A stretch of 64,000 nt of DNA from a bacterium (GCA_037139575.1 JBAXGD010000002.1:66-64065), one strand, 5' to 3'. Shown: positions 29,059-34,641, numbered from the stretch's first letter. Numbers and translations: made by a program. The notes: generated by a model not told the origin, from the letters alone.

Positions 29059-30762
29059 ATGAAAGATAAGATACAAAAAGTCATAAAAGACGAAATTTTC
29101 AAACACTTCAAAGTGACCGTAGACCCAGTTATTACCAGGCCAGATGAAAAATTTGGTGACTACACTACAAATATTAGCTTTGGTCTTGCCCATCAGCTCA
29201 ATAAGAATCCAAGAGAAATTGCTGAGAAATTAATCGAGGGAATAAGACATTCACTAGCATCTGATGCAATTCAAGTAAACAATGTTGCAAACTTTATTAA
29301 TATTAAGCTGAGTGACGAAGCTCTAATTAAAGACTCAGAGTTAGCTATTACATATAAGCCAAATTTGTATAAGGACCAGGTCATTGTCTGCGAATACTCT
29401 GACGCAAATCCATTCAAAGTATTTCACGTTGGACACCTGTACACATCAATCGTAGGTAATGCCATTGCTAATCTTTTTGAGGTGGCTGGTGGAAAAGTAT
29501 TCAGGGTAAATTTTGGTGGCGATGTAGGCAGACATGTTGCAATAAACATGTGGGCCATACTAAATACTGCCGGAAAGGGTGACCCAAAAGTGGCTCTAGA
29601 GTTTTTGGCAGGCCTAGAACCAAAGTCCTTAGATGAAAAAGCTGCTTATCTTGCAGATCGTTATGTTGAAGGAACTCAAGCATTTGAATCTGAGGAATCT
29701 GAACCCCATACTCAGATTACCGAACTTAATAAGAAGTTGTACGAAATTGTTAACTCAAAAGATCATGAATCTGACATTGCAAAGATTTATTGGCTCTGCA
29801 GAGACTGGAGCTATGCGTATTTTAAAAAGTTTTATCAGGATATAGAGATCACAGCCTTTGATCGCTATTATCCCGAAAGCGAAACTGCGCCAATTGGAAT
29901 AGATACTGTCAATAAACAATTAAAGAATGGTGTCTATGAGGAAAGTGATGGAGCAATAGTTTTTAAGGGTGAAAAATACGGTCTTCACACAAGAGTCTTT
30001 ATTACATCCCAGGGACTACCATCATATGAAGCTAAAGATTTGGGGCTAATTATGGCCAAATACAGAGACTTCAAATTTGATAAGTCTATCGTAATCACTG
30101 GCAACGAGATTACTGAATACATGAGGGTGGTGCTTAAAAGCTTAGAGCAGTATGAACCCAAATTGGTTGCCGCCACCACACACTTAACTCACGGAATGGT
30201 AAAGATGGCCGGTGGCGTAAAGATCAGTAGTAGGAAGGGTAATGGTCTTAGAGCAAGGCAAGTTATTGAAGATACTGCAAAAATTAATTTTGAAACTACT
30301 AACACAAAGAGCATGGAGACAACCCTTGGTGCAATCAAGTATGCCTTCCTAAAACAAAGACTTGGACCAGATTTGATATATAGCCCAGAAGAATCGGTCA
30401 GCATTACTGGAAACAGCGGACCATACCTACAATATTCACATGCTAGATCGAGGAGTATTCTTAAAAAAGTAGATAAGACAATTGAGCCATCGAGCTATGG
30501 GCTTGATGATCAGGAAAGACAGCTCACAAGAAAAATAAGTGAGTTCCCGGACTATTTAGACAAGTCTATTGCCGAAATCATGCCTCATCACCTTTGTACG
30601 TACCTCTATGAGCTATCCCAGTCGTTCAATAAGTTCTATGAGGCTAGTCGAGTCATTGGCGACGACAGAGAGGCTATAAGGCTCAAAATAGTTAGCTTAT
30701 ATTCAGATATTTTGAAGAAGGGCCTGGAGCTATTAAGTATTTCAGCTCCTAATCAGCTTTAA
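29059..30762 (+). CDS. argS: Arginine--tRNA ligase
   Basis: N-terminal Arg_tRNA_synt_N-like domain, FHVGHL (HIGH-like), ISSRKGN, and a C-terminal DALR anticodon-binding region (HHLCTYLYELSQSFNKFYE). Its last 93 nt are part of the left 227-bp repeat. Confidence 0.9.
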   Translation: MKDKIQKVIKDEIFKHFKVTVDPVITRPDEKFGDYTTNISFGLAHQLNKNPREIAEKLIEGIRHSLASDAIQVNNVANFINIKLSDEALIKDSELAITYKPNLYKDQVIVCEYSDANPFKVFHVGHLYTSIVGNAIANLFEVAGGKVFRVNFGGDVGRHVAINMWAILNTAGKGDPKVALEFLAGLEPKSLDEKAAYLADRYVEGTQAFESEESEPHTQITELNKKLYEIVNSKDHESDIAKIYWLCRDWSYAYFKKFYQDIEITAFDRYYPESETAPIGIDTVNKQLKNGVYEESDGAIVFKGEKYGLHTRVFITSQGLPSYEAKDLGLIMAKYRDFKFDKSIVITGNEITEYMRVVLKSLEQYEPKLVAATTHLTHGMVKMAGGVKISSRKGNGLRARQVIEDTAKINFETTNTKSMETTLGAIKYAFLKQRLGPDLIYSPEESVSITGNSGPYLQYSHARSRSILKKVDKTIEPSSYGLDDQERQLTRKISEFPDYLDKSIAEIMPHHLCTYLYELSQSFNKFYEASRVIGDDREAIRLKIVSLYSDILKKGLELLSISAPNQL

Positions 30763-30896
30763 TGAGTAGGGTATAATATCAATTACGTGAACATTATAGG
30801 AGATCATTGAATGGACAAAGTTCTAAAAGGAAGCAAACGTGCAGTTTCGAAAGTAGCACCATTAACTTCAAAAACCATTAATAAACAAGTTGGTGG
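30670..30896. repeat. Direct repeat, left copy (227 bp): argS 3' end + spacer + mscL 5' end
   Basis: Identical base for base to 34111-34337 (offset 3441) in my manual comparison. It contains TATAAT (30772-30777), an AGGAG RBS and the mscL ATG (30811). Confidence 0.95.
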
Positions 30897-30909
30897 CTTT
30901 ATTCAATAG
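30811..30909 (+). pseudogene. mscL: Truncated mscL 5' fragment (32 codons, then stop)
   Basis: MDKVLKGSKRAVSKVAPLTSKTINKQVGGF matches the intact MscL at 34252 for 30 residues, then diverges (IQ-stop) at the repeat boundary. Confidence 0.85.
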
Positions 30910-31000
30910 TTACAGGAGCGATACTTATAGTGGTCTGGAGATTTATCATAAAAACTGCAAGCGAGATAGAGAACGAAAAAAAGTAAAAAGCTGTGCTAGG

Positions 31001-31036
31001 TATCGTATTGACATACACATACGATAGGCATACAAT
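31001..31036 (+). promoter_or_regulatory. Consensus promoter of the TA operon embedded in an inverted repeat (putative antitoxin operator)
   Basis: TTGACA (31008-31013), 17 nt, TACAAT (31031-31036). The inverted repeat TATCGTA (31001-31007) / TACGATA (31020-31026) brackets the -35 box. The ATG at 31046 is only 10 nt from the -10 box, so the mRNA is (near-)leaderless and there is no SD. Confidence 0.55.
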
Positions 31037-31045
31037 AGCTATATT

Positions 31046-31330
31046 ATGAGTAACGTACAACTAAGTATAAAAACAGACGAGAACACCAAGCGAGAGCTAA
31101 AGACTTTTGCCACAGAGCTAGGTGTATCAAGCACCGCCCTTGTAAATATGGTCGTAAAGCAGGCTCTACGAGACCGCCGTGTAGTTTTGAGCACCAACCT
31201 TGAGCCAACTCCCTACCTTGAACAAGTTATGAGGGACGCCGACGCCGACTATAAAGCCGACCGTGATATTACACATACTAAAGGCTCAAAAGGGGCATTA
31301 GCCCACCTCGACAGCTTAATGAAAAAGTAA
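31046..31330 (+). CDS. Type II antitoxin, RelB/DinJ-like ribbon-helix-helix
   Basis: MSNVQLSIKTDENTKRELKTFATELGVSSTALVNMVVKQAL is an RHH-type N-terminus of DinJ/RelB antitoxins. 94 aa; stops 3 nt before the toxin ATG. Confidence 0.75.
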   Translation: MSNVQLSIKTDENTKRELKTFATELGVSSTALVNMVVKQALRDRRVVLSTNLEPTPYLEQVMRDADADYKADRDITHTKGSKGALAHLDSLMKK

Positions 31331-31333
31331 ATT

Positions 31334-31594
31334 ATGGACGTTGATTTTACTAAGGCGTTCAATAAACAATTTGATAAATTACCCCGTAAAAAGCAGGAGC
31401 AAGCTAGGGACGCCGTAGCTCTATTTGTAGAGGACATATCCGCTACACCGCTCCGTAATCACGGACTAAAGGGCGAGTGGTTAGGCTACCGTTCTATCAG
31501 TGCGGGAGGCGACTTACGCCTACACTATCAAGTGATTACCGAGACAAAGGTACTCTTTGTCGCTGTTGGCTCACATAGTCAGTTATACAAATAA
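31334..31594 (+). CDS. Type II toxin, RelE/YafQ-family mRNA interferase
   Basis: 86 aa. ...PLRNHGLKGEWLGYRSISAGGDLRLHYQVITETKVLFVAVGSHSQLY parallels the YafQ/RelE core (H-x-L-x-G-x-W-x-G-x-R ... D-x-(L/R)-L-x-Y ... GTH). Confidence 0.75.
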   Translation: MDVDFTKAFNKQFDKLPRKKQEQARDAVALFVEDISATPLRNHGLKGEWLGYRSISAGGDLRLHYQVITETKVLFVAVGSHSQLYK

Positions 31595-31596
31595 CG

Positions 31597-31631
31597 TGTA
31601 AACAATGTTTACTATGTTTACGTTGTAAACA
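31597..31631. repeat. Four GTAAACA/TGTTTAC half-sites in alternating orientation
   Basis: TGTAAACA (31597-31604) a TGTTTAC (31606-31612) ta TGTTTAC (31615-31621) gt TGTAAACA (31624-31631). The array begins 3 nt after the toxin stop codon. Confidence 0.8.
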
Positions 31632-31743
31632 AGTACCTAACTTATTGCTCGTGCAGACACCTTGTCGCATAATAGCCTTACTTGTTAGGTCTCACATATT
31701 GCCGCTTACAGCGAGCAACAAGGAGTAAGTCCCACCTGTGGCA

Positions 31744-31772
31744 TTGACACGAACCTTAAAATATGATAGTCT
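31744..31772 (+). promoter_or_regulatory. Possible promoter for the 658-aa gene
   Basis: TTGACA (31744-31749), 17 nt including a TG at 31764-31765 (extended -10 position), TAGTCT (31767-31772). The -10 box is weak. Confidence 0.3.
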
Positions 31773-31814
31773 GTTAGACACAAAAAATAAAAAACGTAAC
31801 GCTACAATTACACT

Positions 31815-33791
31815 ATGCAAACACCCGGAAGCTCATTTCTACACGAGAGAAACCCCAATCTCCACGCTTCGCAAGAAGTAGAAGGTGTGGTGGGCTATTT
31901 GCGTGCTGGCGGTGAGCATATCCCAAATGAGCCAGCAGATAAGATCTCTGCTCATTTAGGCTTTCTTGCTCATAGAGAATACGTCAATGACGGCATACTA
32001 ACTGGTGACCAATCGAGTATTGATCGCCAGATTGAAGCCAATGTCATTAAGGCCGAAAATGTACCGGATGGCTACTTTGAACTACAGCGTCGTATAGCTC
32101 GTGAACAAGGACACGGTGACGTTACTATTACCCAAAATATGCGTGAGCAAATGACTGAAGCAGTTCAGGCTGATCAGCGAGTCGGACTTGGCAAATGGGT
32201 TGAGTACCTCGGTGGCGAAGATGGTGGCTATCCGGACTGGTTTAAGTCCTACACATTTTCTTCTGTCACGAAACTCGGCAATTACGATAAGGAAAAGGGC
32301 GAATTCCTGAAGCGTAGTCGTGGAACTACAGCCGCTTATCCGGAACTTAACCGTGAGGCTTTAGCCTATGTCTACGATGTGCTCAATAAATCAAGAGTGC
32401 AGCACGAGCCAGTTGATGGTGGTGCCAATAACGAACAGCTCCAAAAGTTACTGCAAGGTGCCAATTTTGGTAAACTCTATGCACATGCCGTTCTTGAGAT
32501 TGCTCCAACTTCACCGGAATTGCTCAAAGATACCAGAGGCTCTTGGACAAAGTTCAACCAGAGTTCAGACCCAAGAACAGCCCGAAGGCTCGCTGGTTCG
32601 TTGCAGGGGCATGGTACTGGCTGGTGCACAGCGGGCGAATCCACCGCAAACATACAGCTTCAGGGTGGCGACTTTTACGTCTATTACACTCGTGATGAAG
32701 ACGGAAAAGAGACTGTTCCGCGCGTAGCAATTCGTATGCAAGAAGGTTCAGTAGCCGAAGTGCGTGGTATCAATACTGCCCAAGAGCTTGAGTCCGAAAT
32801 GGCAGATATTACGTCTGAGCGTCTGCAAGATCTACCTGGGGGCGAAGAGTATATTCGAAGAGCCCAGGACATGAAACACCTGACTGCCATAGACAAGAAG
32901 ATAACAGCCGATCCTACTACTGAACTTACTGGCGATGAGCTACGATTTCTCTATGAACTGGACCATGACATCTCAGGATTTGGTTACAAACGTGATCCAC
33001 GCATTGACGAGATAAGGGCTAAACGAGAAGGCCGGGATAAGCCGGAACTTGCCCGCATACTCCCTGAAACCATTCGCGACCAGCTAAGAGGTGCGTTTAT
33101 GGCTTACAGCACTGTTGCAGGCCAACTAAAAACCGAGCGTCGCTTTCGCAAGCCAGAATCTGGCGTATCGGCACAAGAGCTTGAGCACCTGTTTGCTCTC
33201 AAAGATAAGGAATGGCAAGAAAACGGCGTCTACGATCACTTAGTGGAAGAACTGATTGCCAATGGTGCTCGCTATAACCTAGTAGCCACGCCTAATGTGG
33301 AAGCAACCGAAAAACAAATTGTTGCTTTGGCTGAAGCGTTTGGTAAAGACCAGCCTTACGAAACCTACGTGTACGATGAGCTATATCGTAAAGGCAGATA
33401 CACAGGCCGTGAATTTTCTGGTAACGGCGGTAGCGACCCAGTTCGCCTCAGCCTCATTCCATCCCGTCGTGATGCAGTTTTGAGCGGTAAAACGGTTGAA
33501 ACACAGGTGCGAATGCTGAGGGAGCAGCAAACTGGTAAGCCTAACCTCAATTTGCGTGTCCCAAGTGTTCTTGACGCTGTTACCTACTGGTACACGCTAC
33601 GAGCACAGGGCGACAAACTAGCCGACAGTAGCGCATTCGACAAAACCTATATCCGACACTTCGACCTAGAACCTAAGGCGGTCGCCGGGTGGTCGTTCGT
33701 TCCGTACTCCTACGTGCTCTACGGTGGCACGCCGAGCTTGTACCGCTCGGGTGTCGAGGACGACGATGGCGCTCGCGTGTCGGTGGGGTAA
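31815..33791 (+). CDS. 658-aa island protein of unknown function with a single cysteine in a GHGTGWCTAGES segment (possible PcfJ-like core)
   Basis: Long uninterrupted ORF with GC-rich codon usage unlike its neighbours. No signal peptide, TM helix, P-loop or nuclease motif recognised. Cys271 (32625-32627) is the only Cys. Confidence 0.8.
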   Translation: MQTPGSSFLHERNPNLHASQEVEGVVGYLRAGGEHIPNEPADKISAHLGFLAHREYVNDGILTGDQSSIDRQIEANVIKAENVPDGYFELQRRIAREQGHGDVTITQNMREQMTEAVQADQRVGLGKWVEYLGGEDGGYPDWFKSYTFSSVTKLGNYDKEKGEFLKRSRGTTAAYPELNREALAYVYDVLNKSRVQHEPVDGGANNEQLQKLLQGANFGKLYAHAVLEIAPTSPELLKDTRGSWTKFNQSSDPRTARRLAGSLQGHGTGWCTAGESTANIQLQGGDFYVYYTRDEDGKETVPRVAIRMQEGSVAEVRGINTAQELESEMADITSERLQDLPGGEEYIRRAQDMKHLTAIDKKITADPTTELTGDELRFLYELDHDISGFGYKRDPRIDEIRAKREGRDKPELARILPETIRDQLRGAFMAYSTVAGQLKTERRFRKPESGVSAQELEHLFALKDKEWQENGVYDHLVEELIANGARYNLVATPNVEATEKQIVALAEAFGKDQPYETYVYDELYRKGRYTGREFSGNGGSDPVRLSLIPSRRDAVLSGKTVETQVRMLREQQTGKPNLNLRVPSVLDAVTYWYTLRAQGDKLADSSAFDKTYIRHFDLEPKAVAGWSFVPYSYVLYGGTPSLYRSGVEDDDGARVSVG

Positions 33792-34084
33792 ATCCTTTAG
33801 CTTTTGCCCTTCCTTTTAGTCTTTCTTCTCTTTTTTCTTTCCGGTGCTTCTTCGAAATTTTTTTATCTAATAAACTACCTACGAATATAACTGTTCGGGG
33901 GTAAGTAGTCCAAAGATAACACCCATCGGTGCCCCTGATGGATAGTTGTTTGCATTATGCCTAAAAAGACTTTTCTAATAGAGGAGCCGCTACTTTTTAG
34001 AGCAGTAAGCACGTCAAGAACCCTTAACACCCCACGTGTCTTTAGTGGTAGTGCCAATATGGTGCTGAAACAATAGCGGTCTTT

Positions 34085-34100
34085 CAACCACGAGTGGTTG
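34085..34100. repeat. 16-bp palindrome 10 nt inside the right island junction
   Basis: CAACCAC-GA-GTGGTTG, with perfect 7-nt arms. Confidence 0.7.
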
Positions 34101-34110
34101 TTACGAACAG

Positions 34111-34337
34111 GAGGCTATAAGGCTCAAAATAGTTAGCTTATATTCAGATATTTTGAAGAAGGGCCTGGAGCTATTAAGTATTTCAGCTCCTAATCAGCTT
34201 TAATGAGTAGGGTATAATATCAATTACGTGAACATTATAGGAGATCATTGAATGGACAAAGTTCTAAAAGGAAGCAAACGTGCAGTTTCGAAAGTAGCAC
34301 CATTAACTTCAAAAACCATTAATAAACAAGTTGGTGG
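34111..34337. repeat. Direct repeat, right copy (227 bp)
   Basis: Identical to 30670-30896. Here the argS-derived 93 nt have no upstream reading frame, while the mscL part continues into the intact gene. Confidence 0.95.
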
Positions 34338-34641
34338 ATTTGGTGAGTTTATTAGGGAGTACGGCATAGTTGGGCTTGCAATAGGTTTCGTATTCGGTGC
34401 TCAAGTTAAGAGCGTGGTTGATGTATTCACGGCTACCATAGTGAATCCGCTTGTTGGTCTAATTTTACCTGGAACAGGAAGCTTAAACCAGAAGACCTTA
34501 ACTATTCATATTTTTTCGAAGCAAGCCGTCTTTGGCTGGGGTTTGTTCCTGTCGACATTAATTAGCTTCATAATAGTAGCAATCATCATCTATGTGACAT
34601 TTAAGGCCTTGAACTTAGATAGATTAGCCAAAAAGCAATAA
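34252..34641 (+). CDS. mscL: Large-conductance mechanosensitive channel
   Basis: FGEFIREYGIVGLAIGFVFGAQVKSVVDVFTATIVNPLVGLI (TM1 region), TM2 and a charged C-terminal tail. 129 aa. Confidence 0.9.
   Translation: MDKVLKGSKRAVSKVAPLTSKTINKQVGGFGEFIREYGIVGLAIGFVFGAQVKSVVDVFTATIVNPLVGLILPGTGSLNQKTLTIHIFSKQAVFGWGLFLSTLISFIIVAIIIYVTFKALNLDRLAKKQ

Follow-up and report, generated by a model that had tools for sequence, protein, structure and literature searches.

How does a 3.2-kb piece of foreign DNA come to lie between two perfect 227-bp direct repeats, at the junction of two housekeeping genes, when it carries no recombinase of its own? The question is posed by a 64,000-nt stretch of bacterial DNA (GCA_037139575.1 JBAXGD010000002.1:66-64065, one strand, 5' to 3'; hereafter the window), in which a small island has come between argS and mscL. 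We consider it likely that illegitimate recombination, mediated by microhomology, captured a piece of foreign DNA here in a single event and duplicated a long stretch of the target, and that the island is no mobile element. Its host belongs to the Saccharibacteria, the nearest named sequence to the host's ArgS being from Candidatus Saccharimonadales at ~55% identity. Five features define the locus, in window coordinates:

30670-30896 (unstranded): left copy of the target duplication, comprising the 3' end of argS, a 48-nt spacer with promoter and ribosome-binding site, and the first 86 nt of mscL; identical to 34111-34337 and aligning to the single copy in the empty sites L004, L008 and L009.
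34111-34337 (unstranded): right copy of the target duplication, running into an intact mscL (34252-34641); recognized by string identity and the MscL Pfam match.
30897-34110 (plus strand): inserted foreign DNA, 3214 bp, an internal piece of a cassette holding a small open reading frame (ORF), a toxin-antitoxin (TA) pair and a diversity-generating retroelement (DGR); G+C fraction 0.468, collinear with L026 1409-4614 and L030 1-3194, absent from empty sites.
30811-30909 (plus strand): 32-codon mscL stub made by the duplication, which enters the insert and ends at TAG; also called as a 32-aa gene in L003, L007 and L010.
30891-30986 (plus strand): 3' fragment of a small membrane-protein gene, its last 31 codons, cut by the left junction; WWLYSIVTGAILIVVWRFIIKTASEIENEKK followed by the stop codon matches the C-terminus of the 81-aa ORF at L026 1260-1505.

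The two repeat copies proved identical by repeat finder, by reading of the sequence and by direct string comparison, with identity breaking at 30669/34110 on the left and at 30897/34338 on the right; the repeat finder itself returned a single direct-repeat family (30670-30900/34111-34341, spacing 3441). Each copy holds the last 93 nt of argS (stop codon at 30762), the spacer and the start of mscL, whose ATG lies at 30811 in the left copy and at 34252 in the right. As the stop codon of argS and the start codon of mscL both lie within the duplicated segment, the two genes are both intact, argS as an ORF of 29059-30762 and mscL at full length. The DNA between the copies has a G+C fraction of 0.468, versus 0.389 over the window as a whole and 0.37-0.40 in the flanks, and encodes three credible ORFs: a 94-aa RelB/DinJ-like antitoxin, an 86-aa toxin of the RelE/YafQ/ParE superfamily and a 658-aa protein. 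No recombinase was found in the island or in the ~4 kb to either side of it, no terminal inverted repeats at its ends (repeat finder), no tRNA or tmRNA near it that could have served as insertion target, no replication gene within it (Pfam, PHROGs and NCBIfam profile searches) and no second copy of any of its sequence in the window. A preliminary description, made from the window alone, had reported the perfect repeats and their offset of 3441, their make-up from argS, spacer and mscL, the 32-codon stub, the more GC-rich interior, the lack of an integrase or transposase and the preservation of both target genes, and on each of these points it has been borne out. As to where the duplication ends within mscL, the Pfam match begins at residue 29 of the 129-aa protein (window 34252-34337 encodes residues 1-28), and the duplicated 86 nt thus correspond to the lineage-specific N-terminal extension only; the repeat ends about where the conserved channel domain starts.

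If the island is a recent arrival, the same junction should be found without it. A search of public assemblies with the exact MscL and ArgS proteins recovered both filled and empty sites. The filled site recurs in two further Joint Genome Institute (JGI) samples, in contigs L003 and L010 (3300021601) and L007 (3300021069), which are 100% identical to the window over the whole structure. Uninterrupted loci, which the preliminary description had proposed to look for in related genomes, were also recovered: in L004, L008 and L009, with flanks 96.5-99% identical to the window, argS is followed by 48 nt and then mscL, with one copy of the 227 bp, and in a sister species (ArgS 89% identical) at least 20 contigs, drawn from many samples, have the site empty, a single copy being present in L051-53. 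Gene order in the flanks is otherwise unchanged relative to the empty-site genomes, so nothing else arrived with the island. Moreover, at 3-4 of the 227 repeat positions the empty-site strains depart from the window, while the window's two copies are identical, which places the duplication after the divergence of the strains, unless the copies have been homogenized. Taken together, the comparison of sites identifies a recent, strain-specific insertion into an intact argS-mscL junction. The foreign origin proposed for the island in the preliminary description is supported by the base composition of donor-like contigs considered below.

A skeptical view would be that the chromosome is in truth empty, and that a small circular replicon sharing the 227 bp has been threaded into it by the assemblers. 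The perfect repeat does exceed the usual k-mers, and the MEGAHIT contigs L005 and L006 start exactly 141 nt (equal to k) before the repeat end, which shows that in two further samples the assembly graph forks at this point. Yet the partners share only 7 nt at the junctions, and a k-mer assembler could not have made those joins, so they must be present in the reads; three assemblies agree on the path through the structure at 100% identity; and the island lacks a replication gene, a replicon built of truncated gene fragments being an unlikely entity in itself. We therefore judge a misplaced episome or other assembly artefact to be very unlikely.

Where did the inserted DNA come from? The preliminary description had proposed the island interior as a lead to its source lineage, and this has yielded relatives of the source, though not the donor itself. 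Two metagenome contigs, L026 (MWWH01000503.1) and L030 (Ga0136612_10000339), carry in the same order a small ORF, the antitoxin, the toxin, a homologue of the 658-aa protein and a conserved spacer. They are collinear with window 30890-34117 and then run on into the template repeat (TR), the avd gene and the reverse transcriptase (RT) of a DGR; in the blast alignment L026 begins at 30890 and stops at 34117. Past the left end of the island, the donor-like sequence carries the rest of the small membrane-protein gene. The island cuts this 81-aa ORF (L026 1260-1505, with a weak match to DUF6750) after codon 50, so that window 30891-30986 encodes only the last 31 residues. At the other end, the island stops ~15 nt short of the TR start in relatives, and TR, Avd and RT are left out of it. 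Since L026 and L030 run straight through both ends of the island, those ends are arbitrary cut points and not the termini of an element. The G+C fractions of L026, L030 and L027 (0.465-0.473) equal that of the island, and no argS-mscL sequence occurs in the donor-like loci of L026 and L030. The comparison shows the donor to have been another Saccharibacterium, or a mobile element or phage of one, with ~47% G+C, whose cassette comprised a small membrane-protein gene, a RelB/RelE-type TA pair, a DGR variable-protein gene with its variable repeat (VR), a structured spacer RNA, TR, an antisense avd and RT.

Identity between the island and L026/L030 is uneven: 80-97% over 30960-31850, 53-79% in the large ORF and at least 94% in the last 170 nt. 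Viewed across all relatives the cassette is a mosaic, in which L026/L030 are nearest in the TA region and over the final 170 nt of the spacer (90-100%), L001/L022 in the body of the ORF (~90% at the nucleotide level), and L044 in the C-terminal third of the ORF, the first half of the spacer and the TR. This patchwork marks L026 and L030 as relatives of the donor and not the donor, and it implies that DGR cassettes of this kind recombine with each other, probably frequently.

The exact positions at which recipient and donor-like sequences meet are informative, as each junction falls within a short stretch common to both:

30890-30896 (plus strand): left junction microhomology TTGGTGG, common to mscL and the donor-like sequence, where it forms the tryptophan-tryptophan (WW) codons of the small membrane-protein gene; from comparison of the junction with L026.
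34111-34117 (plus strand): right junction microhomology GAGGCTA, found both near the 3' end of argS and, in the donor-like sequence, immediately ahead of TR; from comparison with L026/L030.

At the left junction L026 reads GCATTGGTGG followed by CTTTATTC (also given as GCATTGGTGG followed by CTTTATTCAATGG) and mscL reads CAAGTTGGTGG followed by ATTTGGTG (or CAAGTTGGTGG followed by ATTTGGTGAG); the window is a hybrid, CAAGTTGGTGG followed by CTTTATTC (or CAAGTTGGTGG followed by CTTTATTCAATAG). At the right junction L026 and L030 read ACGAACAGGA followed by GGCTACTAGAGG, with TR ~15 nt later, argS reads ACGACAGAGA followed by GGCTATAAGG, and the window reads ACGAACAGGAGGCTATAAGG; the GAGGCTA overlap here sits inside a patch of imperfect similarity. 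By our own arithmetic, a blunt random join would show an overlap of 7 nt or more with a probability of roughly 4e-4 per junction. A side observation concerns the recipient strand at the left junction, which ends in GTTGGTGG (window 30889-30896), an octamer that we take to fit the Chi-like consensus GNTGGTGG of Haemophilus and to be one base off the E. coli Chi sequence GCTGGTGG. A Chi-protected 3' end would suit the insertion model proposed below, the point being one of resemblance of GTTGGTGG only.

With both junctions at hand, the two routes offered in the preliminary description can be weighed. One was a non-autonomous, site-specific element that brings along a target-restoring copy and is mobilized in trans by an integrase encoded elsewhere, a scheme to which the absence of a recombinase, the position between two restored housekeeping genes and the TA cargo would lend themselves. 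An attachment (att) core or defined termini are nevertheless disfavored by the two different 7-nt overlaps, by a left end that falls inside a gene and a right end that falls inside a retroelement, across both of which the relatives L026 and L030 continue collinearly, and by the lack of terminal repeats. The unit is furthermore seen at one site only, and copies of the 658-aa gene without an RT in L001, L022 and L023 end elsewhere than the island does, with no long flanking repeats found around them. The trans-mobilized element is thus largely refuted, and we attach hardly any probability to it. Homologues without RT or TR are in fact scattered over unrelated chromosomal sites (L001 6001-7977, L022 4400-6376 and L023 6001-7977, and also L019-L021 and L031), each cut at a different distance past the stop codon (+1, +42 and +135 nt), and orphaned DGR targets seem to be common in this lineage.

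The other route was Campbell-type integration, in which a 3441-bp circle already carrying one 227-bp copy of the argS-mscL junction enters by a single homologous crossover. Repeat-island-repeat is the exact topology of such an event, 227 bp suffices for RecA, and excision of the island would yield just such a circle, which could re-enter conspecific strains of a naturally competent lineage (PMC10633639). What this proposal leaves unexplained is the origin of the patch: the joins between patch and island are the same two 7-nt microhomologies, so that an illegitimate event is needed anyway, while the donor-like loci, collinear past both island ends, lack argS-mscL sequence. Nor do the repeats betray a copy brought in from another strain, being identical to each other where strains differ at 3-4 of 227 positions, as fits a duplication made de novo. 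As the origin of the structure Campbell integration is unlikely; as a secondary route of spread it is conceivable.

The favored account is capture by illegitimate recombination, with its geometry read from the junctions. The left end of the donor DNA was joined at TTGGTGG, 86 nt into mscL, and the right end at GAGGCTA, 93 nt before the argS stop codon. The left end of the donor is thus attached 227 bp downstream of the attachment point of its right end, and it is this "crossed" order that leaves 227 bp on both sides of the insert. The simplest route to such an outcome would be through two recipient 3' ends overlapping by 227 nt, which might arise from nicks on opposite strands, from a broken, stalled or collapsed replication fork, or from two sister copies. 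Each 3' end could pair with the donor via 7 nt and prime fill-in or template-switch synthesis, and that synthesis would copy the 227 bp onto both flanks of the insert. Target-site duplication and microhomology-mediated template switching both follow this general logic. As for the donor DNA, entry by natural transformation is plausible, Saccharibacteria being naturally competent (PMC10633639). Once in place, the island would be exposed to precise deletion by RecA-dependent recombination between its perfect repeats, and an intact TA pair with its own strong promoter-like site would penalize the segregants that had lost it. Such a penalty may help to explain why the fragment has persisted, as distinct from how it was inserted.

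Several points weigh against this account. The true donor is not in hand, L026 and L030 being only 76% identical overall to the island; by the same token, the left microhomology is read from a relative (L026), though it is made of conserved WW codons. Chromosomal linkage across both repeats rests on three concordant assemblies, those of the window and the two JGI samples. The sequence cannot tell the source of the 227-bp overlap, for which staggered nicks, template switching at a fork and joins to two sister chromosomes are all candidates, and both natural transformation and TA-mediated retention are inferred. Lastly, the right cut lies close to the TR boundary, which could be a coincidence or a hint of retroelement involvement.

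That last point deserves a closer look, as one could imagine a retro-insertion, in which a long transcript, extending from the small-ORF gene to just upstream of TR, was reverse-transcribed at staggered target nicks by the DGR enzyme or another RT. The right end lies ~15 nt from the TR boundary, the donor cassette does encode an RT, and microhomology at both joins together with 5' truncation is typical of target-primed reverse transcription, as known from LINE-type elements. DGR RTs, for their part, are template-specific and make short cDNAs that start 3' of TR. A cDNA of this kind would hold TR, which is absent from the island; the window contains neither RT nor TR; and no terminator or defined RNA 3' end coincides with the cut. 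Retro-insertion is accordingly a most improbable origin, and microhomology-mediated capture of a DNA fragment is the reading we carry forward.

Is such an event without precedent? The closest parallel is a recognized class of insertions with long target duplication (Nobusato et al. 2000, Gene 259:99; Furuta, Abe & Kobayashi 2010, NAR 38:2428, PMC2853133). As described in the passages of PMC2853133 drawn on here, restriction-modification (R-M) genes have been inserted with duplications of 46 to ~420 bp and without mobility genes, mostly in naturally competent species, and the repeats often span start or stop codons; the criteria used there were repeats >30 bp, a single copy in the empty-site genome, an insert <20 kb, no mobile-element genes and R-M cargo. 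Measured against those passages, the present locus is alike in its short, foreign-composition insert without transposase or integrase (here 3214 bp), in repeats that are far longer than att cores or transposon duplications and present in a single copy at the empty site, in a spanned stop and start codon with survival of the flanking genes, in addiction-type cargo and in a naturally competent host lineage. It differs in that the cargo is a RelB/RelE-type TA pair with a DGR remnant and includes no R or M gene, that the host is a Saccharibacterium, and that donor-like sequence reveals an arbitrary fragment joined through 7 nt of microhomology at each junction, a detail that we did not find in those passages. 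The locus has the structure of an insertion with long target duplication, and it is neither a DGR nor an integrative element.

Illegitimate recombination in natural transformation provides a second point of reference. In SPDIR (bioRxiv 10.1101/2023.11.22.568220), and in homology-facilitated and double illegitimate recombination, foreign DNA is joined at short microhomologies in processes linked to replication and to competent bacteria. Joins to the chromosome at short microhomologies without a dedicated recombinase are common to those events and the present one. Unlike SPDIR or homology-facilitated events, however, the island has no homologous anchor on either side, is a 3.2-kb insert and not a short patch, and was joined in crossed order to give a 227-bp duplication in place of a replacement or deletion. 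A literature search for experimental double illegitimate recombination that gave duplications yielded mainly risk-assessment documents. Genomic islands bounded by att repeats at the 3' ends of tRNAs or genes likewise place direct repeats around foreign DNA and restore the interrupted gene, but here there are neither an integrase nor conserved ends, what would be the "restoring copy" was duplicated de novo from sequence that the recipient already had, and the microhomologies at the two junctions are different.

Through insertions with long target duplication, addiction-type genes can enter genomes without the help of mobility enzymes, a recognized route that has so far lacked a mechanistic explanation. 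The value of the present locus is that all three parties can be read, namely the empty site, the filled site and the donor-like sequence. What they show supports an origin of such insertions in illegitimate recombination or replication, and extends the phenomenon to TA cargo and to the Patescibacteria, which are naturally competent and have reduced genomes. The locus reveals no new type of mobile element and no new defence system. It does document the separation of a DGR target gene from its TR and RT, and it flags a well-supported structured RNA in a DGR family that is widespread in Saccharibacteria.

The evidence for this DGR heritage lies in the two features that make up most of the island:

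31815-33791 (plus strand): gene for the 658-aa DGR variable (target) protein, of a large Saccharibacteria family without a Pfam model; from homologues, VR/TR comparison and RT context.
33678-33790 (plus strand): VR, formed by the final 113 nt of the coding sequence; relatives have VR/TR pairs of 111-114 nt at the same place.

The preliminary description had called the 658-aa protein an orphan. In place of an orphan we find a family of more than 1282 homologues, many of them 70-94% identical, those with a named source all belonging to Saccharibacteria/Saccharimonadales, and the protein is a DGR variable protein separated from its retroelement. In relatives the last ~113 nt of the ORF recur ~410-440 nt downstream, and nearly all mismatches between the two copies coincide with TR adenines (23/23 in L012, 16/16 in L011 and 17/17 in L016). 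The VR of the window, set against the TR of L044/L045, has 18 mismatches, 18/18 of them at TR adenines, from which we conclude that an element of this kind has diversified the gene. In at least 16 loci the homologue is followed ~750 nt downstream by an RVT_1 reverse transcriptase, whose sequence contains IGNLTSQ, the DGR-type RT motif (of the IGxxxSQ type). Between TR and RT, L026 has a 119-aa minus-strand ORF with a weak, near-full-length match to the bAvd-like family PF22296 (E 1.2e-5, 26.2 bits, against a cut-off of 40). Judged by this sequence evidence, the DGR identification of the 658-aa gene is firm. An RNA-guided or omega-RNA-like module, suggested by conservation of the non-coding tail right up to the end of the island, was rejected on account of the second copy of the ORF 3' end, the adenine-specific mismatches and the downstream RT.

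Like DGRs of the Bordetella phage BPP-1 type, which are abundant in the Candidate Phyla Radiation (Patescibacteria), the relatives of the island combine a C-terminal VR, an adenine-specific TR, an RVT_1 RT and an Avd-like four-helix protein. The classical DGR order is VR-avd-TR-RT on a single strand. In this family avd instead lies on the opposite strand between TR and RT, a ~320-nt conserved spacer with a ~215-nt RNA core separates VR from TR, and the variable protein has no Pfam domain. The avd-like gene itself, at L026 4751-5110 (minus strand) with equivalents in L002 and L044, overlaps the start of the RT gene. The window differs from all complete systems in retaining only the target gene, VR and spacer: no RT was found in its 64 kb by tblastn with the relatives' RT, nor does it contain a TR or an Avd-like gene. 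It is consequently a DGR target remnant and not a DGR; barring the action in trans of a matching DGR, its VR is probably frozen.

The function of the variable protein is less readily addressed. Searches of Pfam, PHROGs, NCBIfam, PADLOC and PDB, by sequence and profile, gave no usable match. Its AlphaFold2 model has a predicted local distance difference test (pLDDT) score of 83.6, and a fold search with that model returned no significant PDB neighbor. The C-terminal 179 residues, modeled separately (pLDDT 93.7), match C-type lectins as the only recurring fold, at insignificant values (template-modelling (TM) score 0.37-0.45, probability <=0.3, E >0.3). In a Foldseek comparison with viral structures, the best hit of the full model, a weak one and the only structural lead for the N-terminal and central part, was to phage PcfJ-like proteins (E 4e-3, probability 0.98, TM <0.2); it covers residues ~240-320, a region holding an invariant GTGWCTAGES motif. 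A protein scan of viral contigs brought up one distant locus only, and an exact, 100% identical homologue of the 658-aa protein (P0001) was not placed on a contig. For one complete system the surroundings can be read: at L002 1802-13977 (metagenome-assembled genome GCA_035510455.1) a full DGR sits amid a ParB-methylase fusion, a terminase-like gene, a ResIII helicase, a second methylase and a large serine recombinase, neighbors that place this DGR in a prophage-like or integrative element.

Downstream of the VR, the island preserves a second conserved part of the DGR family:

33792-34110 (plus strand): conserved VR-to-TR spacer of the DGR family, complete to ~15 nt before the TR start in relatives; from alignment with relatives.
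33895-34108 (plus strand): structured RNA core with 8 helices and 50 pairs; from covariation, slid controls and shuffles.

The preliminary description had noted ~0.6 kb of structured non-coding DNA in the island. The structure holds for its 3' part, 33895-34108, and belongs to a conserved RNA between the VR and TR of the DGR family. Window 33792-34112 was aligned with 18 non-identical relatives (L002, L012-L018, L024-L028, L030, L032, L039, L044 and L048), for which RNAalifold predicts 50 pairs in 8 helices, with compensatory changes at 19 pairs. Of all cells in the alignment at these pairs, 97.5% can pair, as against 39-45% when the partners are slid; 19 pairs covary, as against 1-6 in the slid controls, and 0/500 shuffles come up to the values observed. 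That the RNA lies on the plus strand follows from invariant G-U pairs. Rfam includes the RT-associated motifs of PMC5737381, and it gave no match in the window, including the island, or in the TR region of L026; a scan of viral contigs with the RNA core motif returned nothing.

What might such an RNA do? One possibility is a 5' domain of the DGR RNA; another is an element on the target side that is recognized in retrohoming. The island has kept VR and the whole RNA and lost only TR, avd and RT, so the orphaned gene could remain a remote target. We tentatively raise the idea, while thinking it somewhat doubtful, that the RNA is an undescribed functional component of this Saccharibacteria DGR family and that the orphaned gene still works as a remote target of a DGR elsewhere in the genome.

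Ahead of the variable-protein gene, the remaining features of the island center on the TA pair:

31008-31036 (plus strand): promoter-like site TTGACA-17-TACAAT before the antitoxin, a consensus match only (11/12 positions).
31046-31330 (plus strand): RelB/DinJ-like antitoxin gene, 94 aa; RelB 16.8 bits (cut-off 22.4) and TIGR02384 27 bits (cut-off 45.65), both below cut-off.
31334-31594 (plus strand): RelE/YafQ/ParE-superfamily toxin gene, 86 aa; ParE_toxin 36.9 bits (cut-off 23), YafQ_toxin 36.1 (30) and TIGR02385 RelE_StbE 46 (27.9).
31596-31632 (unstranded): run of 9-nt-spaced GTAAACA/TGTTTAC motifs after the toxin gene, the only occurrence in the window.

The toxin scores above the curated cut-offs for ParE_toxin, YafQ_toxin and TIGR02385, and the antitoxin ORF stands directly upstream, ending 3 nt ahead of the toxin start. 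The toxin half of the DinJ/YafQ-type pair named in the preliminary description is thereby upheld, the antitoxin being RelB/DinJ-like with matches below their cut-offs. The further suggestion of a minimal defence island is not supported: the large gene encodes a DGR variable protein, and PADLOC gave no convincing match to a defence family in the island. Its sole hit, PDC-M28B for the 658-aa protein (E 0.01, 13 bits), was set aside as noise. Runs of the GTAAACA(A/T)TGTTTAC type that follow the toxin gene are also present at L026 11-64, 2115-2150 and 9501-9536 and at L027 461-500, 1045-1075, 2543-2602, 2794-2835 and 11746-11787, some of them several kb apart, and might represent an operator, an iteron array or border marks of a larger element.

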